Notes: a model not told the origin generated them from the letters alone. Positions 9,798 through 45,154 are shown, numbered from the stretch's first letter. The stretch: DNA of 45,154 nucleotides from Candidatus Microgenomates bacterium (GCA_016204255.1 JACQLA010000002.1:1-45154), one strand, 5' to 3'. Numbers and translations: made by a program.

Positions 9798-9866
9798 AAT
9801 TCCAGTTTACTCGCATCACAAAACAAAAATCAAGGCTTAAGAAAAACTATGATAAACTTAAATTCA

Positions 9867-27835: not shown

Positions 27836-27867
27836 GAAAAAGAAAAGTGCTTCACACGAAGCACTTT
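27836..27867 (-). terminator. Intrinsic terminator-like hairpin
   Basis: AAAGTGCTTC-GTGT-GAAGCACTTT followed by TCTTTTTC on the minus strand. Confidence 0.7.
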
Positions 27868-27926: not shown

Positions 27927-29336
27927 CTACCTCGCCCAATCCACAAAGCCTGTAAGTGCCTTCAGAAGATATTTTGGGGACCGGATTTTCGACAATGTTT
28001 TAAATATTATTCTCGGCCGAAGATAAAATTTTCGGTAGGCAAGTCGCCGAAGCTCCATAATTTCTTTGGCTGAAAGATTGGGTGAAGTTAAAATGGAAAA
28101 ATTCTGTTCAAACAGGGCCCAGTTACTACTTTCCAACCAACCCCTATCTATGGCTTGCTGATATAGTTCCGATCCTGGAAAAGGAACAGCGCAATAGAAT
28201 TGAGCAAAATCAAAGGGTAAATCACAGGCTAGCTTAATGGTTGTCAGAATTGTTTCTCTGCTCTCGCCGGGAAAACCAATCATAAAATGACCTGTTACCA
28301 AAAGACCTTCCTGTTTAGAGGCCAAAACGGCATTTCGGATTTGATCGACTTTAATACACTTTTTCATTGTTTTGAGAACTTTATTTACTCCGGACTCGAC
28401 TCCAAAACCAATTTGCCAACAACCGGCCTCCCTCAGCTTGACTAAAAGCTGCTGGTCAACATGATCCACCCGACTGTTAACGACAAATCGCACCTTTAAT
28501 CCCCGCTTTATAATTTCCTCACAAACACCGATAGCAAAATCACGATTTAAGGTAAAAGATTCTGTCCAAAACAAAAAATCATTAACTTTAAATCTCTTTT
28601 GATCATATTCAATCTCATCCACCACCCGGAATGGCGAGGGCAAGCGCAAACCTCGACTATAGTAAACTTTGTCTGCACAAAAAACACACGAGTAGGGGCA
28701 TCCCCTACCCGTTCCCACCAAAAGAAAGGGTTTATCGCTTAAAGGCATCCGATAATTTGCGACATCTATCTTTTCCCAAGCTGGAAAGGGTAAATCATTT
28801 AAATTTTTGATAGGATTTTGAGGAGGATTATGAATTATTTTTTGCCCATTTTTCCAGGAAATCCCCTTCACTACCGCCAGCCCTCCATTGTTTTTTAAGC
28901 TTTTGGCTAAATTGAGTGTGGTTTCTTCAGGTTCACCCCTGATAATAAAGTCAAGTTTTGGCTCGATTCTGAAGCAGTCATCAGGAAGAGCGCTGACATG
29001 AATTCCAAAGGTCGAGGTTTTAATCTGTGGATTCAACTTCTTAGCAAAAGTGGCCATTGAAAGATCGCTTTCAATCGAACCTGAAGCTGTATTAAAAACA
29101 ATAAGATTTGGTTTGAAATCTTTGATAATTTTTCCCAAACCGGTAAAGCCCACATTTTCTGTAATGGCATCCACAAGTTTTGTTTCAAACCCACCTTTTT
29201 CTAAAACCGCGGCGATGGTGGCTAGAGAAATCGGCGACCAAACGGATGTCCATGCTCCCTCTCGCTGCATACATCTTCCCTCCCGAACCATGCGAACACC
29301 AGATGCGGTCGGTGGATTTAAGAGTAGGATCTTCAT
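27927..29336 (-). CDS. B12-binding-domain radical SAM protein
   Basis: RGCPYSCVFC, GIHVS, IRGEPE, FGVESG. Confidence 0.92.
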   Translation of the reverse strand: MKILLLNPPTASGVRMVREGRCMQREGAWTSVWSPISLATIAAVLEKGGFETKLVDAITENVGFTGLGKIIKDFKPNLIVFNTASGSIESDLSMATFAKKLNPQIKTSTFGIHVSALPDDCFRIEPKLDFIIRGEPEETTLNLAKSLKNNGGLAVVKGISWKNGQKIIHNPPQNPIKNLNDLPFPAWEKIDVANYRMPLSDKPFLLVGTGRGCPYSCVFCADKVYYSRGLRLPSPFRVVDEIEYDQKRFKVNDFLFWTESFTLNRDFAIGVCEEIIKRGLKVRFVVNSRVDHVDQQLLVKLREAGCWQIGFGVESGVNKVLKTMKKCIKVDQIRNAVLASKQEGLLVTGHFMIGFPGESRETILTTIKLACDLPFDFAQFYCAVPFPGSELYQQAIDRGWLESSNWALFEQNFSILTSPNLSAKEIMELRRLAYRKFYLRPRIIFKTLSKIRSPKYLLKALTGFVDWAR

Positions 29337-29364
29337 TTTTTGAGAAAAACAAGCTCTGCTTATT

Positions 29365-30045
29365 TTAAAAATATAAGTACTTAAAAAGAGTATAAAGGTG
29401 TCTTAGCCAAACTTTACGCAAACTAATTCTTGACTTCCCAAAACGGCGAGTATACTCATGAGCCGGGACTTCAACGACTCTTAATCCATGTTTTAAACTT
29501 TTGATCAATATCTCTTGTTCGACAGCAAAGCCATCTTCCTTAATATTAAACTTTTTTGCCAGATCTCTTTTAATGGCCCGGAATCCATTTTGACTATCGG
29601 ATAAATCAGTTTTAAAACGATAGTTAATTAAAATCGTTACGATGTGACTACCTGTCTCCCTGATAAACCGGTAAAATGTGCCATGTGACTCATCGCTCCC
29701 CCCAAGAATTCTTGACCCAATCACGTGATCAGCCTTATCGGCTAAAATCGGTTTAACCAAATTTTTAATATCGGCGGGGTCATGAGAACCGTCTCCATCC
29801 ATAAAAACTAAAACCTCGCTTGCTGCTTTTTTAATTGCCACCTTTATTCCCCCGCCTTTACCCCAACCCGGATCCGAGAAAACTTTAGCTTTAAATTTTT
29901 GAGCGATTTCCCTTGTTTTATCCGTGGACTGTCCATCAATGACTAAGATTTCCCCCGGAAAATTCTTTAGATTTTTTAAAAGATAGGGAAGACTTTTTTC
30001 TTCGTTTTTGGTAAAAATAATAACAGAGATTTTATCTTTGGCCAT
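29365..30045 (-). CDS. GT2 glycosyltransferase (polyprenol-phosphate glycosyltransferase/DPM1-like)
   Basis: IDGQSTD, MDGDGSH (DxD), DSQNGFRA, R..GKS. ATG 30045 directly follows the upstream stop. Confidence 0.9.
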   Translation of the reverse strand: MAKDKISVIIFTKNEEKSLPYLLKNLKNFPGEILVIDGQSTDKTREIAQKFKAKVFSDPGWGKGGGIKVAIKKAASEVLVFMDGDGSHDPADIKNLVKPILADKADHVIGSRILGGSDESHGTFYRFIRETGSHIVTILINYRFKTDLSDSQNGFRAIKRDLAKKFNIKEDGFAVEQEILIKSLKHGLRVVEVPAHEYTRRFGKSRISLRKVWLRHLYTLFKYLYF

Positions 30046-30046
30046 T

Positions 30047-31519
30047 CTAGTCCTCTCTTTCTGCTGATTTTTTATCATCTCCTCGGAAAGCAAAGTCAAA
30101 AACCTGAGCTGCAGCTAGTGTCGCCCGACGAAGCTCACCAATGCTTTTGATACTTGTTAGCCATTTTAACCAAAGGCTGGGCTTGAGGTAAAATTTTCGA
30201 TAGGCCAACCTTAATAATCTCCCCAGCTCTTCTTCTGAAACTTCGGTAAAAACCCTATTATAAAAAGCGCTGGTATGGAGCTTTGATAAATCAGCCGCAC
30301 TTCCGTCGACAATCTCCGGAAATCGAGTTGCAACTTGAGTAAAAAGACGCGTGCCGGGAAAAGGCGTACAAATTCCAAACGTAGCCAGTGAAGGGTTAAG
30401 ATCTACAGCAAAATCGATTGTTTTTTTAATTGTGCCGACAGTATCACCCGGCATTCCGATCATTAAGTGGGCATGGGTATCAATTCCGAACTTGCGGCAC
30501 CAGCGAAAAACCTTTTTAGTTTGCGTAAGCCTTATTCCCTTTTTAGAGTTATCTAGAATCTCTTGAGATCCGGACTCCACTCCAAACCGGATCAAGTGAC
30601 AACCAGCTCGTTTCATTATCTTAAGCATTTCCCGGTCAATCGAGTCAATTCTGCTTGAGCAAATCCAGGAAATTTTAAGATCTTTTTTAATCATCCCCTC
30701 GCAAATCTCCAAAACCCGTTTTTTTGAAGCGGTAAAAATTTCATCCCGGATAAACACCTCTTTAAAATCCAAGCGCTTAATTTCTTCAAATTCGGCAAGA
30801 ACGCTTTGCGCACTCCTTAAACGAACCCGGTGGCCGTAAAAAATTGGTGAAGCGCAAAAAACACAAAGCCCCGGGCAGCCACGGGCCGAAAACATTGTCG
30901 TAAAAGGGACTTTCCTGACGATGGGATTAAAATAGTGAATATTTTTTGGAAGCAAGGTTCGATCAGGAATCGGCAAATCATCCAGATTTTCAATCAGGGG
31001 ATAAAAATCATTAATCACCGGTTTTCCCTTCTTTTTAAAACCAATCCCCTTAATCTCTTCCCAATTTTTGCCCTTTTCAAAAGCATTTATTAGATCTCTT
31101 AAGACAAGCTCTACCTCGCGGCGAATAATAATGTCTATTCCCGGTTTGGAAAGTGTTTCTTTCGGCATTGCCGTGGGATGCCCGCCGAAAACGATCGTTT
31201 TAAGATTTTTATTTGCCATCTTTAATTCCTTAAGTATTTGTGCATCCTCATTAATACTTGAGGTTGAAGTTAAAACAACTACGGCGTCAAAATTATGTAT
31301 CTTTTTTTTAAGAGTTGTCAGCGGAGTTTGAGTTGCCATGGCGTCTAAAACACAAACCTGATGACCCGAATTCTTTAAAACTGTGGCGGCCAAAGTTAAA
31401 GAAACAGGCGGAAAAGTAACTCCGCCTATTCTTTTCCCTCGACACCAGCAACCGTAAACCAAATCCCGGGCTACGTTCTTGGCAAACTTTGAGGGAGGAA
31501 CCAAAAATAAAACTTTCAT
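30047..31519 (-). CDS. B12-binding-domain radical SAM protein
   Basis: RGCPGLCVFC, GGHPT, FGVESGS. Confidence 0.92.
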   Translation of the reverse strand: MKVLFLVPPSKFAKNVARDLVYGCWCRGKRIGGVTFPPVSLTLAATVLKNSGHQVCVLDAMATQTPLTTLKKKIHNFDAVVVLTSTSSINEDAQILKELKMANKNLKTIVFGGHPTAMPKETLSKPGIDIIIRREVELVLRDLINAFEKGKNWEEIKGIGFKKKGKPVINDFYPLIENLDDLPIPDRTLLPKNIHYFNPIVRKVPFTTMFSARGCPGLCVFCASPIFYGHRVRLRSAQSVLAEFEEIKRLDFKEVFIRDEIFTASKKRVLEICEGMIKKDLKISWICSSRIDSIDREMLKIMKRAGCHLIRFGVESGSQEILDNSKKGIRLTQTKKVFRWCRKFGIDTHAHLMIGMPGDTVGTIKKTIDFAVDLNPSLATFGICTPFPGTRLFTQVATRFPEIVDGSAADLSKLHTSAFYNRVFTEVSEEELGRLLRLAYRKFYLKPSLWLKWLTSIKSIGELRRATLAAAQVFDFAFRGDDKKSAERED

Positions 31520-33111
31520 AATCTTTTAATTAGGTTAATCGTCCTTTTTTCATTCAAAATTTGCGACAAATCTTCTTTCTTTTCCCAAATTAATGAGGAA
31601 GGGGTAAAAAATAAGGAAGTCGGGGTATATTTTTGGCAAAAATTGGTAGTCTTTACCAAGGATTTTAAAAAGACACCGTCTTCTAAAGAAATCTCGTCTT
31701 TAAGGATGATTTCGTCCATCTTTATCACCAAATCTCTTTTTAAAAATACCGGTGCGGTTTTGACAGAAGATATATATCGCCTTTTTATCCATCGCTCAAT
31801 AAATTTTGCAACGAAATCAATTCTACCCAAAGTATAGTTAAATAAACGGAAAAAAATAATTTTTTGACCCATTGCAGGCTCCCTTATAAAACAAAACTTT
31901 GCCCGAACCGCTCCTTTTTGCCAATGTGGGTTTAACCACTGCGAGGAAACAATCCGACCATCATTGAGTCTTCCCAACCAACCAGTATCAGAAAAGGACA
32001 ATTTCCCGTTTTTGAAAACCTTAATTACTCCATTTTTCTTGTAAGAAAAGACTAAATAAAAATTTTTATTTTTTCTCACCCCTAGTCCTGCCTCTGGAAA
32101 ATCTTTTTCAAATTCGATATTTTCTTTTTCTGCTGTTTTTTTGCTTCCAAGTTTTTCAGTTTCCCCATTCCTTCGTTTTTCTGCTTCCAGATATGCCTGA
32201 ATCCAGTTTCCTAAAAAGAAGAAGATTAAATAGCGGTCGTCGAAAGAGTCAAATGGCTCCCAAATATCAAGAATATCCTGCGCTTGAGATAAGCGATAGG
32301 ATAAGACTTCCAAACCCGTCGGAATCAAGAACTTGGTCCCCCGCGAACCGTACTCTCCCCCATAGCTTCCATCGGGATGAATGAAGTAAGACATAAAATT
32401 GACTGCCTTTTCTAAAGCAGTTAAAACTTTTTTCTCTTTTGTCTTTTGAAAATATTTGGCCAGAAAATCGACAGTCAAAGATAAATATCCCAGGTCCGCC
32501 CCACCATATTCTGGAAACCATCCCTCTACAGATTGTAAGCCTGTCAAGACTCTGAAATTTTCCCAAGATGCTTTACGAAATTCATTTTTCCCCGTTAAAA
32601 GGTAGATATTATAAAGGGCAATTACGGCGCCGGCGGTATGATTTGAAACCTCAGAGTCAGGATTTTTTCTTAACCATCTTCCTGCCCTTTCTAAAGCTGA
32701 GCAAACAAGTCTTTTGTAATTTGGAGGGAATTCTTTGTCTAAAAGTAGGAGGGCCTCGGAAACCGCATAGGAAGTAAAGGCGGTGGCAACATAACTGTGT
32801 TCGTTTGGATACCACTCACTAAACGATCCGTCCGCGTGCTGGATTTTTACCCAAAAATCAGCCGCCGCACAAGTCAACTCTAAAATTTTCTTCTGGTCAT
32901 GATAAATATTTCCGGGAAATTTTTTCTTATATAAAAGTGCTAAGGTCAAAATTCCTGTCTGGAGAACACTCGACGGAAAATCTTTCTCGATTTTATAGTG
33001 CCAGAAGTCTCGATCAAGACAGCCGTAATTTTTTGAGTATTTATTTTGGTTTGTGGCTGAAAATAACCGGGGGCAGTTTTTAAGAATCAATTCTAAATAA
33101 TTACTTTTCAT
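31516..33111 (-). CDS. Hypothetical protein with alpha/alpha-barrel-like Q..DG.F repeats
   Basis: 531-aa ORF overlapping both neighbours. IQHADGSF, LQSVEGWF, FIHPDGSY. Confidence 0.75.
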   Translation of the reverse strand: MKSNYLELILKNCPRLFSATNQNKYSKNYGCLDRDFWHYKIEKDFPSSVLQTGILTLALLYKKKFPGNIYHDQKKILELTCAAADFWVKIQHADGSFSEWYPNEHSYVATAFTSYAVSEALLLLDKEFPPNYKRLVCSALERAGRWLRKNPDSEVSNHTAGAVIALYNIYLLTGKNEFRKASWENFRVLTGLQSVEGWFPEYGGADLGYLSLTVDFLAKYFQKTKEKKVLTALEKAVNFMSYFIHPDGSYGGEYGSRGTKFLIPTGLEVLSYRLSQAQDILDIWEPFDSFDDRYLIFFFLGNWIQAYLEAEKRRNGETEKLGSKKTAEKENIEFEKDFPEAGLGVRKNKNFYLVFSYKKNGVIKVFKNGKLSFSDTGWLGRLNDGRIVSSQWLNPHWQKGAVRAKFCFIREPAMGQKIIFFRLFNYTLGRIDFVAKFIERWIKRRYISSVKTAPVFLKRDLVIKMDEIILKDEISLEDGVFLKSLVKTTNFCQKYTPTSLFFTPSSLIWEKKEDLSQILNEKRTINLIKRL

Positions 33112-33985
33112 TTCCCTTTTTGGACAAAGTCACCATTAAATCGGCCAAAAAACCGATGGAGATTGTAAAAAAACCAATCATTAAAAGAATTAATTCCAGC
33201 ATTCTGGCCTCACCGTAAACAAAAAATGTCCAGAGACCCTTAACAACAGCCAAAAAAATTAAAGCTAGGCCGATCGGCAAAAAAACCTTCAAAGGATTGT
33301 AGATTAGAACCATCCTTACCACTGTAAGAAGATAGTTATAGGTATCTTTCAGCGGATGAAATTTTGACTTACCAATCCTTGTTTTATAAGAAATTGGCAC
33401 CCATTTAACTTGATGGCCATTAGCTAAAAAAGTCATTGTCATTGTCGTCACACAAGAAAAACCATCAGGAATAAGCCAGAGATATTTCAGCGCTATATCT
33501 TTTTTAAAAGCTCGCATACCGGAATTCAAATCAGGGATTTTAACTCCAGTTAGATAGCTTGCGAGACCTTTAATGAATGATTTTACCAGGAAACGAATAG
33601 GACGCAAAGTGCCGGCTTCTTTAACTCTCGAACCAATTACTTGATCAAAAACAGGAAAGTAATTTAAAATTTTATGAATATCAATTACCGAGTAACTGCC
33701 ATCAGCATCCATCATTAGAATAATTTCTCCTTTTGCATGCCGAATCCCCGTTTTCCTTGCGGCACCAGAACCGCGATTAGCGGGATGACGAATAACCTTA
33801 ACGCCGCTCCCTTGGGCTTTTTCACTAGTTTTATCAGTAGATCCGTCATCGACAACAATTATTTCGTACTGGTATCCGGGAACTTTGCTAATCATTTTTT
33901 TTAGATCAGCAATTACCCCGCTTATGGCTTCTACTTCGTTGTAGACAGGTAGAATAATACTTACAAAGAGGCGCTTGTCTAACAT
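33101..33985 (-). CDS. GT2 glycosyltransferase with two C-terminal TM helices
   Basis: VVDDGSTD, MDADG, DLNSGMRAF. Start ATG 33985 is 7 nt after TTGAAA-17-TATACT. Confidence 0.9.
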   Translation of the reverse strand: MLDKRLFVSIILPVYNEVEAISGVIADLKKMISKVPGYQYEIIVVDDGSTDKTSEKAQGSGVKVIRHPANRGSGAARKTGIRHAKGEIILMMDADGSYSVIDIHKILNYFPVFDQVIGSRVKEAGTLRPIRFLVKSFIKGLASYLTGVKIPDLNSGMRAFKKDIALKYLWLIPDGFSCVTTMTMTFLANGHQVKWVPISYKTRIGKSKFHPLKDTYNYLLTVVRMVLIYNPLKVFLPIGLALIFLAVVKGLWTFFVYGEARMLELILLMIGFFTISIGFLADLMVTLSKKGNEK

Positions 33986-34031
33986 GCGCATAAGTATACT
34001 TATAGCGTCTCTTATTTTCAATGACGAGTAA

Positions 34032-35513
34032 TCACGGTACGTTTTTCTGAGTCCACAGGAATCTTAATAAATAAAAAAATTTAGCATCATTCATTTTTAA
34101 TGCATTTAAAAAAACTATCAACTTACTTATCAGCCTTTCTGAGGGTAAAATTAAGACTATTCTTTTCGAAAAAGAGTAAATCAAATTATCATGGAAAAGA
34201 CTGCGGAGTTGAAATAGAATTTGATACTTTAAATACATATTGACCTTTTTCGAATCAACCGATCCGGTTTTATGTGTAAAACCAATAACGCCATTTTCAA
34301 TATCGTTAATTTCTTTATCGGAAATCAGTTTATAGCGCCGGGCAAAATTAATAATATCAGTTTTGGGGTAAAACGTGAGCCAAAAAGTCATTATTCGATC
34401 AACTTTAACCTGATTATATAATTTTAGACTTTTTTCAAGATCACTGCGGGTTTCCGAAGGAGCACCGAATATATTATCTACCGAAATTTTAATTCCAGCC
34501 TTTTTAATAATCATGATACTTTCTATAATTTTTTGATTACTTTCGTAGCGATGGAAAATTTCTTTCCGGATTCTTTCGGATCCTGATTGAACACCCATCG
34601 TAACCAACCAACAACCGCCCTCTTTTAATAAAGCAATAATTTTCTCGGAAACCGCCAGGGGGTGAACAGAACACCAAAAAGGTAACTTAATTTCAGATTT
34701 GTACAATGGAATAAATTTTTGCAGCCAAGGAAGAGAAAAAGTAAAAATATCATCACCGAAATTAACCAGCCGCACGTCCCATTTCTTTTTGGCCATTTTT
34801 AATTCTTCGATCACATTTTCTGGTGACCTTCTTCTAACATGATTTTTCTCTTTAATATAGAGATTATGGTACATATCGTTACTGCAGTAAGTGCAATTAT
34901 ACGGGCATCCTCTTGTGGTCATGATCAGATAGTGTTTAGCAAAAAGAGGCACTTTTTCGTAGAATATTTTTTTATCCGGCAGAGGAAGATTATCTAGATT
35001 CCAAATATATGGCCGAGGTGGATTTAGATTGATTTTTCCATTAAATCTAAAACCGAGGTTGGGAATTTTAGCTAGATATTTCGGGGATTCCTTTTTTTCT
35101 AAATGATTAAGTAGATTTACTAAAACTCCTTCTCCCTCACCAATAGCAACATAGTCAATAAAATCATTAAGCAGGACTTTCTCCGGAACCGCAGTGGCAT
35201 GAACCCCGCCGAAAATTATTGGAATCTTCGGTAAAGCTATTTTAAGATTTTGAGCAACCTTTAAACACCAATTATAGTTACCTGTATAAACGGAGAAACC
35301 GATTATATCGGGTTTAATTCTAAATGCCTTATTAATAATTTTTTTATCTATGGTAAAAATTTTTGAAAGGAAACGATTATCTATCAATTGATCTCCGGAG
35401 AAAATGGCTGGATCAAAAAGAAGATATGTTTTGTGACCCTTCGACTTTAACAAACTTGATAAATATTCTATGCCTAAATTTTCGGCGCCGTTATAAACAA
35501 ATAGTATTTTCAT
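34032..35513 (-). CDS. B12-binding-domain radical SAM protein
   Basis: RGCPYNCTYC, GGVHAT, GEGE, GVQSGS. Confidence 0.92.
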   Translation of the reverse strand: MKILFVYNGAENLGIEYLSSLLKSKGHKTYLLFDPAIFSGDQLIDNRFLSKIFTIDKKIINKAFRIKPDIIGFSVYTGNYNWCLKVAQNLKIALPKIPIIFGGVHATAVPEKVLLNDFIDYVAIGEGEGVLVNLLNHLEKKESPKYLAKIPNLGFRFNGKINLNPPRPYIWNLDNLPLPDKKIFYEKVPLFAKHYLIMTTRGCPYNCTYCSNDMYHNLYIKEKNHVRRRSPENVIEELKMAKKKWDVRLVNFGDDIFTFSLPWLQKFIPLYKSEIKLPFWCSVHPLAVSEKIIALLKEGGCWLVTMGVQSGSERIRKEIFHRYESNQKIIESIMIIKKAGIKISVDNIFGAPSETRSDLEKSLKLYNQVKVDRIMTFWLTFYPKTDIINFARRYKLISDKEINDIENGVIGFTHKTGSVDSKKVNMYLKYQILFQLRSLFHDNLIYSFSKRIVLILPSERLISKLIVFLNALKMNDAKFFYLLRFLWTQKNVP

Positions 35514-36988: not shown

Positions 36989-37026
36989 ATTAATTCTCCT
37001 TTCCCCTTGAAAGGGAGTGTCATTTT

Positions 37027-38505
37027 TTAAACTTCGGCGTAAATTAAAAGCGATCCGGAAACCTCCCGCACAATTGGTACCTTTTCAAGAATAAATCCTA
37101 ATTTATTTACCGGCCCGATTAACAATTTTGGTGTGAAAGGATGAAGAAAATCAAAGGGTTTTACTTGAATATTTTTAAAACCGGCCTTCGCCAGATTTGA
37201 ATGGAGCGACCAACGAAAAAAAGCTGTTTCCTCCGGAGAGTCCCGGGAAATTCTCTTTAAAATACCTACCTTCTTTTGTAAAAAAACGTGGGGATTGGCT
37301 AAATTAGGCTCAAAAAAAATAATCCCGCCGCCGGATTTTAAGACTCTTTTAATCCCGAGCAAAGCTTTTGATAAATTTAAATGATGCAAAACCGAATTGC
37401 CCACAACGAAATCAAAGGAGTCCGAGTCAAATGGCAAAGCATGCGCATCTCCCTGACGAAAAGAAATATTTTTACCCTTAATCTCTTTGCGGGCAAGAGC
37501 AACCAACTCCGAAGAAATGTCAACGCATACTATCTTGACTCCGGCTTTAATTAAATGACGACTAAACTCTCCCACCCCTGATCCAATTTCTAAAACTTTA
37601 TCTTCCGACTCTAAGAAATCGGCTACAACTTGACCTCTGCGAGCAATTCTTACTTTTCCGGCCGCCGTTGCCCACCAAAGTGTTTGATCCTTTTTAGAAA
37701 GCTGACGAAAGTGGTTTTTTTCACGTTCCACTCTAAGATCGGTGATATTTTTGGGTTTAACCAATTTTTCAGACTTGATAATCAGATAACCAAACTGACT
37801 CTTTGGAACAAAAGGAAAAAGAAAGTCATCGATCTTCAAGCAAACAGGACTCAAACAGGTAAGAAATGAAAATCCATAGCGGTAATGAAGAAGAGCCCGA
37901 AAGAACATTAAGGGTTCCTTCAGTAAAATCTCTGTTTTACCTAAAAACTTTTCTTGGAAAACCAAAGAGGCTAATTTTGTAACCATGGAATCAACAGTTT
38001 TTGTCTCGGACTTAACTAGTTTGGCAAAGACAAAATTTATCAAATTGTTACCGTTTCCTTCTATAATGATTACCTTTCCCCTTTGCCTACAAACTCTTAC
38101 CATTTCACTAATTACTTTCTCCTTAAAACTTACGTGATGTAAAAGATTTTTGGCAAAAACCAAGTCAAATTGCTTTTTCTTAAAGGGCAATTTATAAGCA
38201 TTGGCAACAATTAATTTAGCAAAGGGACTTTTCTTGCGGGCAAAAGTAATTTTTGGTCTAGAGAAATCGACTCCGGTAACTTCTCCCTTAAATCCTAATT
38301 TTTTAAGATTAACAATATTTGCACCTTCGCCACAGCCTACTTCAAGAATCTTTTTGGGATTCTCTTTTAAAATCTCTGCAAGTATTTGCTTTTCTTTCTC
38401 AAAAATGTACGGATTTTGGGTTAACCAATAAAATTGACTCCTCTCTGCCCGCTGAAAGTGTTTTTTCTGAAAGGAATCGAATTTGTTTTTAGTTAATTTT
38501 TTCAT
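37027..38505 (-). CDS. Tandem double class I SAM-dependent methyltransferase
   Basis: Two motif-I copies (ILEVGCGEG, VLEIGSGVG), each followed by A..LPF...FD and LHH. Confidence 0.9.
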   Translation of the reverse strand: MKKLTKNKFDSFQKKHFQRAERSQFYWLTQNPYIFEKEKQILAEILKENPKKILEVGCGEGANIVNLKKLGFKGEVTGVDFSRPKITFARKKSPFAKLIVANAYKLPFKKKQFDLVFAKNLLHHVSFKEKVISEMVRVCRQRGKVIIIEGNGNNLINFVFAKLVKSETKTVDSMVTKLASLVFQEKFLGKTEILLKEPLMFFRALLHYRYGFSFLTCLSPVCLKIDDFLFPFVPKSQFGYLIIKSEKLVKPKNITDLRVEREKNHFRQLSKKDQTLWWATAAGKVRIARRGQVVADFLESEDKVLEIGSGVGEFSRHLIKAGVKIVCVDISSELVALARKEIKGKNISFRQGDAHALPFDSDSFDFVVGNSVLHHLNLSKALLGIKRVLKSGGGIIFFEPNLANPHVFLQKKVGILKRISRDSPEETAFFRWSLHSNLAKAGFKNIQVKPFDFLHPFTPKLLIGPVNKLGFILEKVPIVREVSGSLLIYAEV

Positions 38506-40381
38506 CTGCAAATTTTTGCCACCACAGCTCAAAAATAACCAGAGCCATAAGCTGTTTACCTAAAAGAAGTGGTGATTTTTTAAACTCTTTTTTTAGGCTT
38601 TCTATGTATTCAAAATTAAAAAGACCTCGCTTTTCGACGACCTTGCGGCTTAAAGTTTTAGAAAATAACTTTAGCATTTCTTTTCCCCAAAACTGCTCTA
38701 TTGGAACAAAGAATGATCGTTTTGGTCTTTTTAAAACATCTGGGGGTAAAACACCAGCCATCGCTTCTCTCAAGATGAGTTTATTCTTCCATCTCTTTAT
38801 TTTAAAATCCGACGGGAGTGAAAGGGCAAACTCTACGAGACGGTAATCAAGGTACGGGACCCGGGCTTCCAAACCATGAGCCATTGATAAGCGATCGGCC
38901 ATATAAAGAATGTAATCAGGTAACCAATTTAAAACATCAAAAACAATAATTCGTGATAGAAAATCACCACTCCCTTTTTTAAGAGATCGTTTTAATTCTG
39001 CCTCTATTGATTTCTTACCTATCAGGTGCTTGGCGAAATTTTTAGTGTAAAGCTTTTTTTTATCCTCCTGGGTAAAAAGATTCGCAAAGGTAAAATAGTT
39101 TTCAAATAAAGAATTCGCCTTTAAGAAATGCGTTAATCGCCGTTTACCTTTTTCTCCAACTGATGCCGGGTAAGGGAATATTCGATCAATTATTTTACTC
39201 GGGATAAACTTAACCCCAAAAGCCAAAAAGCTAGCAGGTAAAAATTTTTGTAGCTTTTCTTTCCAAAAAATTCCCAGATGATGAATATAACCGCCAAAGA
39301 TTTCGTCAGCACCATCGCCGGTCAAAACAACTTTAACTTCTTTACTCGCTCTCCCAGCTAATAAATAAATAGGCATAATGATTGGGTCACCGATTGGCTC
39401 ATCGAGAAAGGAAACAATTTCCGGCAATAGGGTAAAGTTTTTGGGAATAACCGAAAAATGATGATAATCAGTTTTTAGACGTTTTGCCAATTCGATTGCT
39501 TGATGAGTTTCATCAATTGAAGAATTAAATCCAAGAGTAAAAGTTTTAATTTTCCTCTCGTGCTTTCTTTGCGCCAAGGAGGTAACTATCGAGGAATCTA
39601 TTCCTCCGGATAAATAAGCTCCAACGGGAACGTCAGCGACCATCTGCGAAGAGATAGACGCCCTGAGCAATCTTTCCAACTGATTCCTTGCCTCATTTTT
39701 ATTGAATGATGAACTGTGTATCGTTGGCTGCCAATACCTACTTACTTTTATTTTTCCTTCTTTAAAGATTAAAATTGACCCGGCGGACAATTTTCTAATC
39801 TGGCTAAACATCGTTTTATCTCCCGGTAAGTAGCGTAGACTTAAATACGTATCGATTGAAACGGGATCAATTTCTTTTTTAATTTTTTTCCAAGCAAGGA
39901 TTGCTTTTGCTTCTGAGGCAAAAATTAGACAGCCGTTAACTAGCGCAAAGTAAAGCGGTTTGACTCCTAAATGATCCCGGACTAAAATTAGCGTTTTTCT
40001 TCTCTTATTCCAAATAGCAAAAGCAAAAATACCTATAAAATGCTTAACAAAATCAAGCCCCCACTCTTCATAAGCATGAAGAATGACTTCGTTATCGCTT
40101 TTTCCACCGAACCTATGACCTTTATCCTCTAGATCACGCCGCAATTCCTTGAAATTATAAATTTCACCGTTAGCAGCTAAAATAGCGTTTTTGTCTTCGC
40201 TGACAAATGGCTGATGACCGCCTTGAGAAAGATCAATTATTGCTAGGCGCCGATGGCCAAGACTTACTATCCCATTGGAGTAAAAACCAGAATCGTCTGG
40301 TCCACGATGGACAAGCAATCGAGACATTTTTTGGAGCAGTCGCTGATCTTTAAAACCGACAAAACCATAAATTGCGCACAT
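38489..40381 (-). CDS. asnB: Asparagine synthase (glutamine-hydrolysing)-family amidotransferase
   Basis: N-terminal Cys2, HRGPD, RLAIID, NGEIYN, LSGGIDSS, GDGADE. Confidence 0.95.
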   Translation of the reverse strand: MCAIYGFVGFKDQRLLQKMSRLLVHRGPDDSGFYSNGIVSLGHRRLAIIDLSQGGHQPFVSEDKNAILAANGEIYNFKELRRDLEDKGHRFGGKSDNEVILHAYEEWGLDFVKHFIGIFAFAIWNKRRKTLILVRDHLGVKPLYFALVNGCLIFASEAKAILAWKKIKKEIDPVSIDTYLSLRYLPGDKTMFSQIRKLSAGSILIFKEGKIKVSRYWQPTIHSSSFNKNEARNQLERLLRASISSQMVADVPVGAYLSGGIDSSIVTSLAQRKHERKIKTFTLGFNSSIDETHQAIELAKRLKTDYHHFSVIPKNFTLLPEIVSFLDEPIGDPIIMPIYLLAGRASKEVKVVLTGDGADEIFGGYIHHLGIFWKEKLQKFLPASFLAFGVKFIPSKIIDRIFPYPASVGEKGKRRLTHFLKANSLFENYFTFANLFTQEDKKKLYTKNFAKHLIGKKSIEAELKRSLKKGSGDFLSRIIVFDVLNWLPDYILYMADRLSMAHGLEARVPYLDYRLVEFALSLPSDFKIKRWKNKLILREAMAGVLPPDVLKRPKRSFFVPIEQFWGKEMLKLFSKTLSRKVVEKRGLFNFEYIESLKKEFKKSPLLLGKQLMALVIFELWWQKFADEKIN

Positions 40382-40388
40382 AACCTTA

Positions 40389-41822
40389 TTAAGTAGAATC
40401 TAGAATCGGATCACCTGTTACCGGAGGAAGAATAAGGGTATCCAGGGCAGCGTGAAAGGCTTTATTAAAATCATTTAGGGACCTCATTTTCTTAAGTGCT
40501 GGAAAAATCCTTTTTGGGCGAAAATAAAATTTAAGATAGGCTTGACGAACCAACTGTTTTGCCTCCAGTGGCGTCAAACGCGTCCTAACCAACGGCAAAG
40601 ATTTCTCATTAGCCGGATTAAGTACAAAGCTGCTCCAATAATCTTCTCCTGTATCTTCCATCATCATTTGATAAAGCTCCGTCGCCGGAAAAGGGGTCAT
40701 CTTAGTAAATTGAACCCAATCCAAAGGCAATTCGCAGGCAAATTGGATGGTTTTTTGGGCAGTTTCTCGTGTCTCACCAGGCGAACCGATAATGAAAAAG
40801 CCCAGTGCTTCAATATTATATTCTTTAGTCCAAGCAATAATTTTTCTGATCTGATCGACACTAATTCCCTTACGCAGGGTTTTAAGAATTTCTGGATCAG
40901 CCGACTCAATTCCAAACATGATCCGTACACATCCAGACCTTGACAATTCTTTAAGCATCTCCTTATCTACACAGTCAACCCGGGTTCGGATTGACCAAAT
41001 AATATCCAACTTTCTTTGTCTAATTTCTTTACATATTTCTAAAACCCTTTGTTTATTAGCGGTAAAAGAAGAATCATAAAAATCGATCTCGCGAACACCG
41101 AAGTCCTTATAGCATTCCTCCATTTCGTCAGCAATGTTTTGGGGAGATCTCATCCGCCATTTCGCCTTTTTTAAGTCACAGAAGATGCAGTGAAAAGGGC
41201 AACCCCGAGTTGTTACCATGGCCGTAAATTTTTTCCGGCGGGAAACAACGTTATAATACTTTGCATTGTCAACAAGGTGTCTTGCTGGAAAAGGAATCTT
41301 ATCAATCTCCATCACTTTATCTTGAGGAGAATTAAATATAGTCTTTCCATTTTGACGGAAAGCAAGACCATTTACTCCTTCTAGAGATTTTCCTTTTTCT
41401 AAAGTTTCAAAAAACTGAGGTAAAGTAATTTCCGCCTCTCCAACTACTGCATAGTCTATTTCTTTATGTGTCATTGTTTCTTTAGGATAAGTCCCCAGAT
41501 GCTGCCCGCCAATCAAAATCGGTAGATTCATTCGCTTTTTAATTTCTCTAATCCAAGAAAGAGCCTGGTGAAACATGTAGGTAGTCATGGTAAAACCTAA
41601 AATATCAGGTGAAAAAACCTCAAGTTCCGAGATCACATCCTCAACAGACAATTTTTGGGCCACTGTATCAATAATTATTACCTGATGACCCGCCTGTTCG
41701 GCGATAGCCGCCACATAAAGAAGGCTCAACGGAGGGATAATCCCTAAATTTCTTTCTTGAGCACGAATTGCCGTCCAATTATTTTCAGCAAAAGTCGGTG
41801 TATAAATTAAAGCTAATCTCAT
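40389..41822 (-). CDS. B12-binding-domain radical SAM protein
   Basis: RGCPFHCIFC, GGQH, GEAE, FGIES. Confidence 0.92.
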   Translation of the reverse strand: MRLALIYTPTFAENNWTAIRAQERNLGIIPPLSLLYVAAIAEQAGHQVIIIDTVAQKLSVEDVISELEVFSPDILGFTMTTYMFHQALSWIREIKKRMNLPILIGGQHLGTYPKETMTHKEIDYAVVGEAEITLPQFFETLEKGKSLEGVNGLAFRQNGKTIFNSPQDKVMEIDKIPFPARHLVDNAKYYNVVSRRKKFTAMVTTRGCPFHCIFCDLKKAKWRMRSPQNIADEMEECYKDFGVREIDFYDSSFTANKQRVLEICKEIRQRKLDIIWSIRTRVDCVDKEMLKELSRSGCVRIMFGIESADPEILKTLRKGISVDQIRKIIAWTKEYNIEALGFFIIGSPGETRETAQKTIQFACELPLDWVQFTKMTPFPATELYQMMMEDTGEDYWSSFVLNPANEKSLPLVRTRLTPLEAKQLVRQAYLKFYFRPKRIFPALKKMRSLNDFNKAFHAALDTLILPPVTGDPILDST

Positions 41823-41834
41823 CGAGCTATATTA

Positions 41835-44744
41835 TTAATATTCATCTTCCTCGAGGACAGTTTTGGAAAATCGGGAGAAGACCCCTTTACTAAACCCCGT
41901 AAAAAAAACAAACGCTTTTGGTACCAACAAAAAGATCAAAAGAATTATAAACGTTAGAATGGAAATTATACGGGCGCCGAGGGGAACGGTTGATAAACTA
42001 AGCTCTAGTTTAATTTTTTCTCCTGGTTGAGAGGGAGGAAGACGCAACAACATCAGATTTGGTCCAGAACGATAAACAGGTAGGCTACCTTTTCTTCCCA
42101 TGTTTACCTGCCAATCGGGATAAAAATTCTCTCGCCACAAAAGAGAACTATAAGAAGGGCTTCCATCTGCCAAAGTAAATTCGATTTTATCAGGATTAGG
42201 CCTTTTTAGAGTCACCATCATATCCTTATTATCTTTATCCTCAACTAACCAGCTAAAAAGTTTTTGAGTGAAGTTATATTCCTCCCGAGCCTGATAATAT
42301 TGTAAATGACCTAAAAGATTCATACCCGACCAAACCACTTTTCCCTGTCCCAATTTACCGACAACAATGATCGGTTTATCGTTTCGTTCGTAAATAACCT
42401 CACCCCAATCCTTAACCGCTGATTTTGGCGCGGTGGCAACGTCCCAAGTATCATTGTAATAGACGAACTTCCCAAATTTTTCCTGATCAAACTCACCGCC
42501 TATTTTTGCGGTATCAAGCTTCAAATTATTAGCTTCACTACTATCCCATTCCAAACTCTGCAGTGGAATCACCTCTAAAGCCTGATGAGCCTGCCATTCC
42601 GAATTGGTGTATTGCCAACCAGACTCGATAAATAATCTACCTCCCTCTTCAACATAAGCCGTTAGCATTTTCTCCACTTTTGACTTGTCGTCATAAACTT
42701 GTCCATAAAGAATTAAGCCATCAAACTTCTTCAGCTCCTCTAGGGTATATCTATCTAATCTACCGTCATCCCTTCCCTCAACTAGCAATGCTGTTTCGTA
42801 AGGAATAGCCCCCGAGACTGCTTTGCGAAAAACTTGTTCGTAGGATTGTTTTTTCAGATTTCCTATCACCAGAAAAGTTGGCCGGTTTGTCCAAGTTACA
42901 ACTCCTGGGAAATTTTTAGACCGCACCACTTCCAGCGATTTATCTGGCTCATCAAGAACCTGTTCCCAATTTTTATTCTCATACTTTTCAAAAGGATCGG
43001 TCTTATTTTTAGCAATTATTTCTTTGTCTGTTGTTTTGTGTAAAATAACGTATTTTATCCCAAACCATGAAGCTAATTGAGGGATCGTTTCTGGCGGTTC
43101 AACACTTTCGCGGTCATAAAAAACGCCTTCCTGAAAACCTAAAAATTTCCAATTCAGCGCCATGGCATACCAGTAAAGCGGTAAAATTGGGGCATTACTC
43201 ACGTTGGACCAAGTCGCAATCAATTCGCCACGTTTAGGAGAAATGTCAATTGGCGTCTGCTCAGAGAGCTCAAGTTTGTCGGCAATATTTCGAGCTAATC
43301 CTTCGTAAGGTGCTCCCCAAGACCCTAAGCTTAGATCAATTTTATTAAGTCTTTCCCAAAAATTGCAGTAATCAACTTTTGTTCGCCACCAACGACCAAA
43401 ACCCTGATAACAATCAGCTTGTTCAATATTGGGTGGACCACCCTTAAGAAAAAAGATGAATAAAATTGCGATTAGAAGAGTAAAAACTGGAGTTAAATTT
43501 ACTCTCGGAATAAATTTCGCAAGCCATTGACCAGAAGCTAAACAACCCCAAGCGGCAAGCACCGGCAGTAGAATAATGACTGGAACCAAACCCCGAACAT
43601 AAATATCCCGCCAAAAAATCAAAAGACTTTTAACCAACCAGGGAGTTACTCCAGGCGCAATTGCATAGAAAACAAAAAAGATGGAGACAAACGAAACTGC
43701 GACGGCAGTCTTATTTACAGTTGATCTTTGGCTGTTTTTTTGCCCTTCTTGTTGTTTATTTTGTGTTGAGGCAAACGAAGCTGGCCGGAAAGCAAATATG
43801 GCCCCCAAGATCGCTAACGCCCAGACCGGACGAGAGAAAAAGACATACCACATTGAATTATTTTGCGAAAGACTGTCAAGTCCGGATACTCCAAAAAGTG
43901 CTCCTAGGGTAGTGTATGGCACCTGTTCAAATGACCAGTAGGCCAAAAGATTCCTTGAAGCGATGTAAGTATAACGCCAATACGGAAATAGCCAGAATCC
44001 AGCCAGCAGTACAGCAACAAAAATAACTAAAATTGGCAAAGCTAGACCATGGGATAAGTTTTTTATTTTTTTTCCGCCGGCAAAAATTGAGTAAATCACT
44101 CCATAACTAAAAATTGTTGCAAATAAAACCGTCCCGGCCAAAAAATGTGTTAAAACAGCAAAACTTGCAAGAAGCGAACTTGAGAAAAACCAAAGGATAA
44201 TCCTTCTTGGACGTCTCTGCCCAAAAGACTCGGCTAATAAAAGATCAAAAAATAAAATCACCGGTGGGAAAAAAATAAACGCCAAGGAGTGCGCATAAAG
44301 TCCTATTTCGGCAAGCCAGGCCCAAGAGGCGTTAGAAAGGGGGTAAAAAACTCCGGCTAAAATAGCTGCCATCCAGCTTTTAAACCTAACTCGCATAAAA
44401 ATAAAAATGCCTAAAGCCGTCAAATAAACTGACAAAAATTCCCAAAGATGCATTGACTGAACGATTGTGATATTAAATAGGCGGCTTGTAAGAACAGTTA
44501 TAATAGGCGCGCCAATGACTCCCTGCGAAAGTTGAACTCCACTGCCGTGTAAGGGAAACCATTGAGGAATATTGGGGAAAAAGCGATCGAACCACAAAGC
44601 TGCTGTTTGAGCGACACCAATGTCATTACCCACAAGGTAATCAGGTAAAAGATCCCACCCAAAAAGGTAAACAATCAGAAATATAATAACTGTGCCGAAG
44701 AAAAATCCCGTAAGATTAATAAATACTGAAAGAAGCTTTGCCAT
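41835..44744 (-). CDS. Large polytopic membrane protein, GT-C/YfhO-like (PTPS-related membrane domain)
   Basis: GND after the first TM, P.W.P...G, many TM helices, large extracellular domain, ENFYPDW motif, C-terminal TM. Confidence 0.7.
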   Translation of the reverse strand: MAKLLSVFINLTGFFFGTVIIFLIVYLFGWDLLPDYLVGNDIGVAQTAALWFDRFFPNIPQWFPLHGSGVQLSQGVIGAPIITVLTSRLFNITIVQSMHLWEFLSVYLTALGIFIFMRVRFKSWMAAILAGVFYPLSNASWAWLAEIGLYAHSLAFIFFPPVILFFDLLLAESFGQRRPRRIILWFFSSSLLASFAVLTHFLAGTVLFATIFSYGVIYSIFAGGKKIKNLSHGLALPILVIFVAVLLAGFWLFPYWRYTYIASRNLLAYWSFEQVPYTTLGALFGVSGLDSLSQNNSMWYVFFSRPVWALAILGAIFAFRPASFASTQNKQQEGQKNSQRSTVNKTAVAVSFVSIFFVFYAIAPGVTPWLVKSLLIFWRDIYVRGLVPVIILLPVLAAWGCLASGQWLAKFIPRVNLTPVFTLLIAILFIFFLKGGPPNIEQADCYQGFGRWWRTKVDYCNFWERLNKIDLSLGSWGAPYEGLARNIADKLELSEQTPIDISPKRGELIATWSNVSNAPILPLYWYAMALNWKFLGFQEGVFYDRESVEPPETIPQLASWFGIKYVILHKTTDKEIIAKNKTDPFEKYENKNWEQVLDEPDKSLEVVRSKNFPGVVTWTNRPTFLVIGNLKKQSYEQVFRKAVSGAIPYETALLVEGRDDGRLDRYTLEELKKFDGLILYGQVYDDKSKVEKMLTAYVEEGGRLFIESGWQYTNSEWQAHQALEVIPLQSLEWDSSEANNLKLDTAKIGGEFDQEKFGKFVYYNDTWDVATAPKSAVKDWGEVIYERNDKPIIVVGKLGQGKVVWSGMNLLGHLQYYQAREEYNFTQKLFSWLVEDKDNKDMMVTLKRPNPDKIEFTLADGSPSYSSLLWRENFYPDWQVNMGRKGSLPVYRSGPNLMLLRLPPSQPGEKIKLELSLSTVPLGARIISILTFIILLIFLLVPKAFVFFTGFSKGVFSRFSKTVLEEDEY

Positions 44745-44802
44745 AAGATTCAACAATCGAAACTAACAAAAGCCCGGTATTAATCAAGTTCTTTTATTCC
44801 TT

Positions 44803-45154
44803 CTACTCTTCTTGTTCCCACCATTTATTGAGCCCGGGACGAAAGCTGGAAAAGATTTTCCGGCTGAAACTTAAAAACATTTTATCATTAATAAAAAGGA
44901 TTACCAAGAACACAATCATAAGCAAAGAGGTCAAACGGGAAAGAAGATAAACGGTTGATTTATCTAAGGTTAACGTTATTTTTTCGCCTCCATCGACCGT
45001 TTTAAGCGGTATCAGCATAAAATTCGGGCCGGCTCGATAGATAGGCAATTTTTCACCATTTGAAAGACGCGCCTGCCAATCAGGGTAAAAATTCTCCCGC
45101 CAGTAAAGCCAGGAGTTTTGTTGGGGCTGGGAGAAGATGAACTCAATCTTATCA
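44803..45154 (-). CDS. C-terminal part of a paralogue of the 41835-44744 protein (truncated by the window edge)
   Basis: Open frame from the edge: DKIEFIFSQ...WRENFYPDWQ...LPIYRAGPNFML, matching DKIEFTLA...WRENFYPDWQ...LPVYRSGPNLML. Confidence 0.9.
   Translation of the reverse strand, partial: DKIEFIFSQPQQNSWLYWRENFYPDWQARLSNGEKLPIYRAGPNFMLIPLKTVDGGEKITLTLDKSTVYLLSRLTSLLMIVFLVILFINDKMFLSFSRKIFSSFRPGLNKWWEQEE

Follow-up and report, generated by a model that had tools for sequence, protein, structure and literature searches.

A five-radical-SAM operon of a Candidatus Microgenomates bacterium with a probable role in lipid-carrier surface glycosylation

Ultra-small bacteria of the candidate phyla radiation (CPR) attach to hosts, and their surface chemistry is hardly known. 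A contig of a Candidatus Microgenomates bacterium (GCA_016204255.1, JACQLA010000002.1:1-45154) raises the question of what such a cell makes with five radical S-adenosylmethionine (SAM) enzymes encoded among glycosyltransferases. We analysed the entire contig (C3; 45,154 nucleotides, hereafter the window), one of the 8 contigs of a 711,806-bp assembly with a completeness of 81%. The region from position 27927 to the contig end contains 11 complete genes and one gene fragment, and all of its long open reading frames (ORFs) lie on the minus strand. The region probably represents the downstream (3′) half of a long operon that serves three-component lipid-carrier surface glycosylation of the GtrB/GtrC, CsbB/YfhO, or ArnC/ArnT type, with radical-SAM tailoring.

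In the direction of transcription, the genes encode a 116-aa fragment, a 973-aa GT-C protein, the radical SAM protein RS5, an AsnB-type amidotransferase (AsnB), a tandem methyltransferase (MT), RS4, RS3, a family-2 glycosyltransferase (GT2b), a 531-aa protein, RS2, a second family-2 glycosyltransferase (GT2a), and RS1 (Table 1). The intergenic distances range from −53 to +46 nt. The original prediction, made from the DNA alone, had described a contiguous, co-oriented run, and this description was borne out by the gap-free series of minus-strand genes at 27927–45154. The AsnB, the double methyltransferase, and the two GT2s that it named were all found on this strand, and the five radical SAM proteins with B12-binding domains all passed the Pfam cut-offs and carry the intact CxxxCxxC motif. 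The two GT-C-like membrane proteins were recovered in part: one is complete (973 aa), and the second consists of the last 116 residues of a paralogue. The stretch is present in 7 groundwater DNA runs from two studies, 6 of which are possible sources.

GT2b and GT2a scored 105.8 and 95.9 bits, respectively, on PF00535, and both have a DXD motif. The top solved relatives of GT2b were the Pyrococcus dolichol-P-mannose synthase (DPMS; 5mlz, E 5.3e-17), GtrB (5ekp, sll0501), and ArnC, and its two transmembrane (TM) segments are located at residues 237–270 and 271–300. No TM segments were predicted in GT2a, which scored 143.8 bits on the NCBIfam model of AglJ and 66 bits on that of PpgS, each under its cut-off. 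The 973-aa protein gave 41.4 bits on PF10131 and has approximately 10 TM segments and a GATase1-like external domain. Its AlphaFold2 (AF2) model (pLDDT 71.5, 13-row alignment) matched STT3 (8agb; VIA Z 26.6, 340 residues aligned, rmsd 3.5), AglB (3waj; 24.9), PglB (21.4), Pmt4 (20.9), and ArnT (20.8), with DPY19 also in the range of 26.6–20, and its structural TM-scores in the Atlas were 0.68 to PTPS_related clusters and 0.64 to YfhO clusters. The 973-aa protein is thus predicted to adopt the GT-C membrane fold. Among 13 paralogues and orthologues of this protein, W66, G73, and W882 were the only invariant residues, and a consensus GxD near residue 45, a candidate for the acidic residue that GT-C enzymes conserve in their first external loop, was present in at least half of the sequences without being invariant. 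The GT2 and GT-C logic of carrier-linked sugars in the original prediction is in agreement with these relatives of GT2b, with its two TM helices, and with the GT-C model (Z 20–26.6).

We modelled the 531-aa protein, which had been called an unknown barrel protein, with AF2 (pLDDT 90.2, 30-row alignment). The barrel was confirmed as an (alpha/alpha)6 barrel at residues 1–317, and the model added a C-terminal beta-sandwich and a fold like that of sugar epimerases and lyases in both Foldseek and VIA. The best full-length Foldseek matches were PL8, PL17, and PL33 lyases and human dermatan-sulfate (DS) epimerase 1 (E 1.5e-7 to 1e-6, TM-score 0.45–0.57), the E value of 1.5e-7 being that of the PL8 lyases. 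Over residues 1–317, VIA gave Z scores of 24.1–21 for YPO2471, glucose and cellobiose 2-epimerases, N-acyl-glucosamine 2-epimerase (AGE), and unsaturated glucuronyl hydrolase (UGL), and the best two-domain match was DS-epimerase 1 (Z 19.3 over 429 aligned residues). Sugar epimerases, hydrolases, and lyases made up the top 50 structural neighbours in VIA, with no terpene cyclases among them. The precomputed family labels were PF25840/PF25841 (Ulvan_lyase_N/C), and Pec_lyase gave a weak match of 26.3 bits with no stretch passing. A profile of 30 family members found nothing at E < 0.05 among the Protein Data Bank (PDB) sequences, where the top match was the complement C4 thioester domain. The 30-row alignment has 35 invariant columns, many of them polar, and no TM segments were predicted. 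We regard the protein as a putative cytoplasmic sugar epimerase, isomerase, or lyase on the basis of this model. Two runs of a complex prediction with GT2b gave an ipSAE of 0.00, a value that bears on neither side.

The family of the 531-aa protein is large. An exhaustive profile search gave 2,588 representatives at 50% identity with E ≤ 0.001, of which 1,206 had E ≤ 1e-30, and the family comprises at least 917 clusters at 90% identity. In a scan of species-representative genomes, at least 581 stretches from many bacterial and archaeal phyla encoded relatives. We took a census of the neighbourhoods (±7 kb) of the best 80 of these at least 581 loci, picked by similarity to the 531-aa protein; L051 and L060, in which the ORF was lost in a filter, were left out, giving 78 loci. 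A GT2 was encoded in 64 of the 78 loci and directly adjoined the 531-aa homologue in 33, and the GT2b orthologues adjoining the family were 43–73% identical to GT2b. An LPG_synthase_TM flippase-like protein occurred in 18 loci and was fused to PMT_2 in 6 more, an identified GT-C (PMT_2, PMT, YfhO, or STT3) occurred in 19 (PMT_2 in 7), and a B12-radical SAM protein occurred in 21. AsnB (13/78), NAD sugar epimerase (12/78), UDP-sugar dehydrogenase (9/78), and MBOAT (5/78) were also encoded. The recurring unit of GT2, barrel protein, flippase-like protein, and GT-C has the layout of three-component carrier-lipid glycosylation.

Other genes recurred beside this family in the census. A nitroreductase of approximately 215 aa is encoded directly beside it in 14 loci (L007, L013, L020, L021, L027–L029, L035, L040, L042, L045, L058, L069, and L074), a second nitroreductase form of 420–467 aa adjoins it in 5 loci, and an FrhB/FdhB-like Fe-S flavoprotein adjoins it in 6 loci (L049, L050, L064, L070, L076, and L077). 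The adjacent nitroreductase and FrhB-like genes suggest that a redox step is coupled to the 531-aa family in lineages without the radical SAM protein.

The five radical SAM proteins scored 73.5–94 bits on PF04055 (cut-off 29.5) and 46.2–88.6 bits on PF02310 (cut-off 32.1). The individual values on PF04055 and PF02310 were 73.5 and 46.2 bits for RS1, 87.6 and 68.2 bits for RS3, 80.8 and 88.6 bits for RS4, and 94 and 75.7 bits for RS5. The operon holds 5 of the 7 PF04055 matches and all 5 PF02310 matches of the genome within approximately 14 kb of the 712-kb assembly, which argues that the clustering is not by chance. RS1–RS5 are 26–33% identical to one another, and we therefore take them to be old paralogues and not recent duplicates. 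On the HpnJ model (TIGR03471, cut-off 577.6), RS1, RS2, RS4, RS5, and RS3 scored 254.9, 264.1, 209.7, 217.4, and 113.2 bits, respectively, and all failed. HpnJ was the best NCBIfam model for RS1, RS2, RS4, and RS5, with BchE also among their best models, and the best models for RS3 were ApyD, MJ_1487, and BchE (approximately 114–122 bits, under the cut-offs). The AprD4 model gave 44–147 bits across the radical SAM proteins (RS2, 147.3; cut-off 500), and AprD4 itself (6fd2, E 9.3e-33) was the closest solved relative of RS2. Judged by these cut-offs, RS1–RS5 lie outside every characterised radical-SAM family. The nearest models, HpnJ, BchE, and AprD4, represent radical SAM enzymes that do not methylate, and the heavily methylated product of the original prediction is only one option.

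The AsnB sequence starts with MCAIYG and gave 297.1 bits on PF00733, 153.5 bits on GATase_7, and 486.7 bits on TIGR01536, passing the cut-off of 267.1. AsnB is single-copy in the genome, and homologues with 229–608 bits are encoded in 531-aa-family loci of other phyla. The MT matched Methyltransf_11 in two stretches (161.4 bits), and MT genes between AsnB and GT2b also occur in the metagenome contig L084.

These assignments can be combined into a pathway. GT2b, anchored in the membrane, and GT2a, which is soluble, would use a nucleotide sugar to load polyprenyl phosphate with a monosaccharide at the cytoplasmic face, as their family and fold suggest. In the cytoplasm, the 531-aa protein may then epimerise or isomerise the carrier-bound sugar or act on it as a lyase; AsnB would convert a carboxylate of this sugar to an amide, and the tandem MT would O- or N-methylate it. 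At unactivated carbons, the five radical SAM proteins could C-methylate or deoxygenate the sugar or rearrange its ring. Once the modified sugar has been flipped, the tandem PTPS_related/YfhO-like GT-C proteins, whose fold is modelled, would hand it to surface acceptors.

Table 1. Features of the operon region at 27927–45154 and of the site downstream of it
Feature	Position	Strand	Description
RS1	27927-29336	-	B12-binding-domain radical SAM protein, 469 aa, motif CPYSCVFC
GT2a	29365-30099	-	Soluble Dpm1/AglJ/PpgS-like family-2 glycosyltransferase, 244 aa, DGD motif
RS2	30047-31519	-	B12-binding-domain radical SAM protein, 490 aa; conserved partner of the 531-aa protein
531-aa protein (UNK)	31516-33111	-	Soluble (alpha/alpha)6 barrel plus beta-sandwich, Ulvan_lyase_N/C-like; putative sugar epimerase, isomerase, or lyase
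GT2b	33101-34021	-	Polyprenyl-phosphate glycosyltransferase-like GT2, 306 aa, DAD motif, two C-terminal TM helices
RS3	34032-35513	-	B12-binding-domain radical SAM protein, 493 aa, most divergent of the five
RS4	35510-36988	-	B12-binding-domain radical SAM protein, 492 aa
MT	37027-38532	-	Tandem class-I SAM methyltransferase, 501 aa, two domains
AsnB	38489-40381	-	AsnB-type glutamine-dependent amidotransferase, 630 aa, N-terminal Cys2, PP-loop SGGIDS
RS5	40389-41822	-	B12-binding-domain radical SAM protein, 477 aa
973-aa protein	41835-44756	-	Predicted glycosyltransferase of the GT-C fold, PTPS_related/YfhO-like; multi-TM domain at the N-terminus, GATase1-like external domain, and TM at the C-terminus
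116-aa fragment	44803-45153	-	C-terminal piece of a second GT-C paralogue, truncated at the contig end
Terminator-like hairpin and T-run	27844-27867	-	Between RS1 (last operon gene) and a VanW-like gene; consensus match only

The CsbB/GtcA/YfhO and GtrB/GtrA/GtrC sets are three-component glycosylation systems. Common to them and the operon are YfhO/PTPS_related GT-C proteins and a GT2 of the Dpm1/GtrB type that ends in two TM helices, and the same GT2, flippase-like, and GT-C composition is seen in cassettes that surround members of the 531-aa family elsewhere. The operon differs from them in that no GtrA/GtcA or LPG_synthase_TM was identified in the operon and in that eight tailoring enzymes (five radical SAM proteins, AsnB, the double MT, and the barrel protein) are added between the GT2s and the GT-C proteins. 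In the ArnC/ArnD/ArnE-F/ArnT pathway, which provides aminoarabinose for lipid A, the sugar is modified on undecaprenyl phosphate before its transfer by a GT-C protein. This on-carrier tailoring is the logic proposed here, and the solved relatives of GT2b and of the 973-aa protein include ArnC and ArnT, respectively. However, the tailoring enzyme of the Arn pathway is a deformylase, no radical SAM protein or AsnB is involved, and the acceptor is lipid A, which is not expected in this lineage. By analogy, the operon appears to resemble the GtrB/GtrC and CsbB/YfhO systems, to which a stage of Arn-like on-carrier tailoring would be added.

The tailoring enzymes have counterparts in other pathways. 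In moenomycin biosynthesis, the AsnB-like MoeF5 amidates a uronic acid bound to a lipid phosphate, and MoeK5 adds a C-methyl group to this sugar. The combination of an AsnB-type amidotransferase with a class-B radical SAM protein is common to moenomycin unit F and the operon, which were compared by description; however, moenomycin belongs to secondary metabolism and is built on a phosphoglycerate lipid, and no dehydrogenase forming uronic acids was found in the 81%-complete genome. PMC9204698 and PMC12931638 place MoeK5 with HpnJ and Fom3 in a class-B network and list it as a Csp3-methyltransferase, respectively. The former source describes HpnJ as the proposed catalyst of ring contraction of a hopanoid-bound glucosamine. 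The HpnI/HpnK/HpnJ system likewise pairs a GT2 with a B12-domain radical SAM protein that acts on the sugar of a membrane glycolipid, but the operon proteins scored 210–264 bits against the cut-off of 577.6, no HpnK-like deacetylase was seen, and five paralogues are present instead of one. AprD4, GenK, and GenD1 also perform radical SAM chemistry on sugar carbons, AprD4 (6fd2) being the solved structure closest to RS2; their substrates, however, are soluble pseudo-oligosaccharides, the AprD4 model scored 44–147 bits against 500, and AprD4 works without cobalamin.

For the 531-aa protein, the closest descriptions come from archaeal assembly of lipid-linked N-glycans with hexuronic acids, for which, according to PMC3827465 and PMC13308652, AglQ of Haloferax volcanii and Agl32 of Halobacterium salinarum are required; both are soluble helical-barrel isomerases/epimerases, Agl32 being a glucuronyl C5-epimerase of a single alpha-helical domain. 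The structural homologues predicted there for AglQ (1fp3, YihS, unsaturated glucuronyl hydrolase, and YteR) coincide, as entries or as families, with the top matches of the VIA search with the 531-aa protein. By comparison with these proteins, the 531-aa protein has an additional beta-sandwich like that of DS-epimerase 1.

No characterised pathway matching the cluster was found by NCBIfam, where the radical SAM scores were all below the cut-offs, and no description was found in the full-text literature searched (main texts); the queried terms were likewise absent from a paper on gene exchange in Patescibacteria (PMC12455944). The designation of the pathway as undescribed in the original prediction is consistent with these searches. 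The original prediction also depended on joint conservation, and the genes do recur together in other genomes. With thresholds of >250 bits for GT2b and >450 bits for RS2, a full or partial orthologous module of AsnB, MT, GT2b, the 531-aa protein, and RS2 was present in L002, L005, L006, L015, L023, L024, L048, and L059 and in the metagenome contigs L084 and L085, and it is conserved orthologously in Omnitrophota, Actinomycetota, Cyanobacteriota, Planctomycetota, and archaea. In L048, from a metagenome-assembled genome (MAG) of Planctomycetales, the 531-aa homologue and the RS2 orthologue (6946-10056) are each split into two ORFs by frameshifts or assembly errors, and the module is otherwise intact. 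UDP-sugar dehydrogenase is encoded in 5 of the 5 genomes with the orthologous module; this co-occurrence does not discriminate because 11–13 of the 14 control genomes have the enzyme too.

We constructed a tree of radical SAM proteins from 33 rows (ORFs >380 aa and >100 bits; the split L048 and partial L085 copies were left out). RS2 belongs to a clade of 13 rows with 100/100 support, which includes sequences from Omnitrophota, Actinomycetota, Cyanobacteriota, Woesearchaeota, an Asgard archaeon, and further MAGs, and each of the other 12 rows adjoins a 531-aa homologue or lies one gene from it. RS1, RS3, RS4, and RS5 have no supported orthologues in the tree among the 531-aa-family loci. The nearest relative, L083, has the order RS3-GT2b-UNK-RS2-GT2a with identities of 63, 73, 57, 65, and 70%, respectively, its RS3 being a partial ORF. 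The GT2a orthologues in L083, L100, and L104 are 57–70% identical to GT2a.

The rest of the operon has its relatives within the class. In G047, the 973-aa GT-C (53% identity), RS5 (67%), one MT domain (42.5%, to a lone MT), GT2a (57%), and RS1 (60%) occur in the same order, with the RS5 orthologue directly after the GT-C orthologue and the MT directly preceding GT2a with nothing intervening. In G018, GT2a and RS1 (59 and 63% identity) follow two GT-C paralogues. RS1 orthologues at E ≤ 1e-100 were found in 2 of 200 class relatives, and the 531-aa protein was found in none of the 40 class relatives searched. Because G047 has the flanking order without them and the 531-aa protein is absent from these 40 relatives, AsnB and the RS4-RS3-GT2b-UNK-RS2 block look like insertions into a backbone. 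Their GC content of 0.35–0.38, against approximately 0.41 elsewhere, is a slight dip that gives weak support to this origin. By these comparisons of sequence and gene order, the operon is thus a mosaic of a lineage backbone (GT-C, GT-C, RS5, MT, GT2a, and RS1) and a travelling module (AsnB, RS4, RS3, GT2b, the 531-aa protein, and RS2).

B12-binding-domain proteins are encoded in 78 of 201 class genomes including this one (G000), 63 of which were over the cut-off, and the top copy numbers were 9, 7, 7, and 6. We inspected eight regions of class relatives chosen for their density of radical SAM genes; all eight were glycan loci with GT2-like ORFs, some of the matches being weak, and the regions also held NAD sugar epimerases, GT4s, SPASM or other radical SAM proteins, and PMT_2 or PTPS_related GT-C proteins. 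The cluster belongs to a recurrent, class-wide type and is not a single occurrence.

The operon very probably extends another 15–19 kb onto contig C6. The 116-aa fragment at the end of C3 is 45% identical to residues 856–963 of the 973-aa protein and 43% identical to the C-terminus of the paralogue upstream of the 973-aa orthologue in G047. At the start of C6, in the same orientation, the first 632 residues of a paralogue are encoded, which align to residues 7–668 of the 973-aa protein; a third GT-C paralogue of 900 aa follows, giving three to four tandem GT-C paralogues across the break. Further co-oriented genes on C6 encode a 702-aa protein that shares their TM architecture, a methyltransferase, proteins with multiple TM segments, a membrane protein with spermine-synthase-like and TPR regions, a fusion of a helix-turn-helix (HTH) region with a GT2, and a 589-aa protein with a weak N-terminal PTPS_related match; two nucleotidyl-transferases are also encoded on C6. 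In the class relative G014 (L105), C6 genes occur in the same order beside such GT-C paralogues. The join rests on the paralogue split across the two ends and on synteny in relatives, and no exact end overlap of 15–300 nt was found between any contig ends.

Three genes on C6 are of separate note. The spermine-synthase-like gene (C6:9181-12087, minus strand; L082) encodes 968 aa, in which approximately 10 TM segments at the N-terminus are joined to a spermine/spermidine-synthase-like domain and to TPRs at the C-terminus, and the gene is conserved in G014 beside the same neighbours. The HTH-GT2 fusion (C6:13435-15525, minus strand; L082) is a 696-aa ORF with HTH_Tnp_1 and HTH_23/28 transposase-type domains, two TM helices, and a C-terminal GT2, an unusual DNA-binding/membrane glycosyltransferase in the stretch where the operon probably continues. 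Just past the co-oriented envelope genes lies the gene of a large serine recombinase (domains Resolvase, Recombinase, and Zn_ribbon_recom; C6:20882-22408, minus strand; L091:882-2408), which may mark the edge of a mobile island.

With respect to cofactors, the genome encodes MetK, a cysteine desulfurase (NifS), and a NifU scaffold; SAM and Fe-S clusters therefore need no host source. The host-derived cofactors of the original prediction were too broad a category, as cobalamin alone could come from a host. Its proposed check for suf/isc, metK, and btu genes gave a divided result: MetK, the cysteine desulfurase, and NifU were found, and SufBD and BtuC/FecCD were not found in the 81%-complete assembly.

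Several points weigh against the assignment of the operon to carrier-lipid glycosylation with radical-SAM tailoring. Every score of the radical SAM proteins on a family-specific NCBIfam model was below half of its cut-off, so that the reaction type cannot be assigned from these models. A PF02310 match is not proof of cobalamin use because AprD4, the closest solved relative of RS2, has the domain and does not use cobalamin; cobalamin binding has no sequence motif common to all such enzymes, and AprD4 and ArsL homologues are described in PMC12931638 as having a B12-binding domain without bound cobalamin. In the same 81%-complete assembly, a FecCD/BtuC-type permease, UppS (PF01255), and UDP-sugar dehydrogenase (PF03721) were not found, which leaves the source of cobalamin, the origin of the carrier, and the carboxylate for AsnB unexplained. 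No flippase-type gene (LPG_synthase_TM or GtrA) was identified in the operon. The census was selected by similarity to the 531-aa protein and includes kin, so its loci are not independent, and the GT2 frequency lacks a background rate. No RNA runs containing the stretch are listed.

The only PF03706 gene of the genome lies on another contig, where a GT2 and an LPG_synthase_TM protein are encoded as a pair (C5:100704-101969); this LPG_synthase_TM gene could supply a flippase-like function for the operon.

Other products were considered for the same enzymes. In one alternative, which we consider unlikely, the substrates of the tailoring are soluble nucleotide sugars or a polysaccharide under assembly from repeat units, such as a capsule or exopolysaccharide (EPS), and the GT2s are ordinary chain builders. 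The GT4s, NAD-dependent sugar epimerases/dehydratases, and SPASM radical SAM proteins in the radical-SAM regions of class relatives are typical of nucleotide-sugar and repeat-unit pathways, a Wzy_C/TPR protein is encoded at window 20036-22186, and the proteins that resemble the 531-aa protein in structure have polysaccharides as substrates. AsnB, moreover, gave 490 bits on the amidotransferase model associated with XrtA/PEP-CTERM EPS (TIGR03108), although this is under the cut-off of 816.9. Against chain building, GT2b is organised like DPMS, GtrB, and ArnC and ends in two TM helices, the operon has GT-C proteins and no Wzx, Wzy, or initiating phosphoglycosyl transferase among its Pfam matches, and the 531-aa family occurs in GT2/flippase-like/GT-C cassettes. 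An improbable alternative is the tailoring of membrane lipids (hopanoid-, ladderane-, or tetraether-like), in which the radical SAM proteins modify the chains or the head group and the barrel is like a terpene cyclase or prenyltransferase. HpnJ is the best model for four of the five radical SAM proteins, a "lipid biosynthesis B12-binding/radical SAM" model gave 99–153 bits, and one 531-aa homologue is named "prenyltransferase/squalene oxidase repeat-containing" by its source. The set of GT2, LPG_synthase_TM, and HpnJ-like proteins also mirrors hpnI/hpnL/hpnJ. However, the scores on the lipid models were under half of the cut-offs, the barrel has the sugar-active structural neighbours described above and not terpene cyclases, and the genes that surround the 531-aa family in the various phyla are those of glycan pathways (UGDH, NAD epimerases, GT4, STT3, and PMT). 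No hopanoid-type gene was present among the Pfam matches of the operon, squalene-hopene cyclase not having been searched for in the genome. HpnJ itself works on the sugar of a glycolipid (PMC9204698).

A ribosomally synthesized and post-translationally modified peptide (RiPP) or another natural product, with B12 radical SAM proteins that C-methylate a peptide and AsnB as a lasso-type or macrolactam cyclase, is very improbable. Sub-threshold NCBIfam scores point in this direction (ApyD, 122–171 bits; rSAM_ocin_1, 76–119 bits; lasso cyclase, 258.9 bits for AsnB), but AsnB passes the generic asparagine-synthase model and has the glutaminase Cys2, and the conserved partners are GT2s and GT-C proteins. 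Because no gap exceeds 46 nt, a precursor-peptide gene has no space in the run, and no nonribosomal peptide synthetase (NRPS), polyketide synthase (PKS), protease, or transporter domains were found among the Pfam matches of the operon proteins. The absence of NRPS, PKS, and precursor peptide noted in the original prediction is consistent with these results.

Within carrier-lipid glycosylation, a more specific product can be proposed, although we hold it to be rather doubtful: the AsnB/MT/GT2b/barrel/RS2 cassette would make a polyprenyl-phosphate-bound, amidated, C-methylated or ring-rearranged acidic sugar (moenuronamide-like), elaborated by the four further radical SAM proteins, and would be exchanged horizontally among CPR, DPANN, and Omnitrophota.

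Scans of the region for regulatory sites gave 26 terminator-like sites against 19.4 (standard deviation (sd) 4.6) in shuffles and 48 promoter matches against 39 (sd 5.7), and neither excess is clear. Elsewhere in the window, a 2069-aa protein (1385-7594, minus strand) with collagen-binding-like, DUF5060, apiosidase-like, and PQQ/beta-propeller domains is probably a surface or secreted giant that binds or hydrolyses glycans; the ORF after its gene (3-1388) had no Pfam match. The Wzy_C protein mentioned above (plus strand) is a 716-aa O-antigen ligase-like membrane protein fused to TPR repeats and is encoded upstream of def and fmt.

To judge from the operon and its relatives, much of a CPR genome of approximately 0.7–0.9 Mb may be devoted to radical chemistry on surface sugars. 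Similar loci are common in the lineage. The analysis gives a function-level handle on the sizeable 531-aa family, which partners polyprenyl-phosphate GT2s in bacteria and archaea, and defines a five-gene module (AsnB, MT, GT2, barrel protein, and RS2) that is compact and directly testable. If carrier-lipid sugars are the substrates, class-B radical SAM chemistry would widen from antibiotics and hopanoids to general envelope glycosylation. If the product is an amidated acidic sugar, radical-SAM chemistry would here be found for the first time on sugars bound to a carrier lipid in primary envelope biogenesis, and it would provide surface sugars beyond the reach of ordinary nucleotide-sugar pathways.

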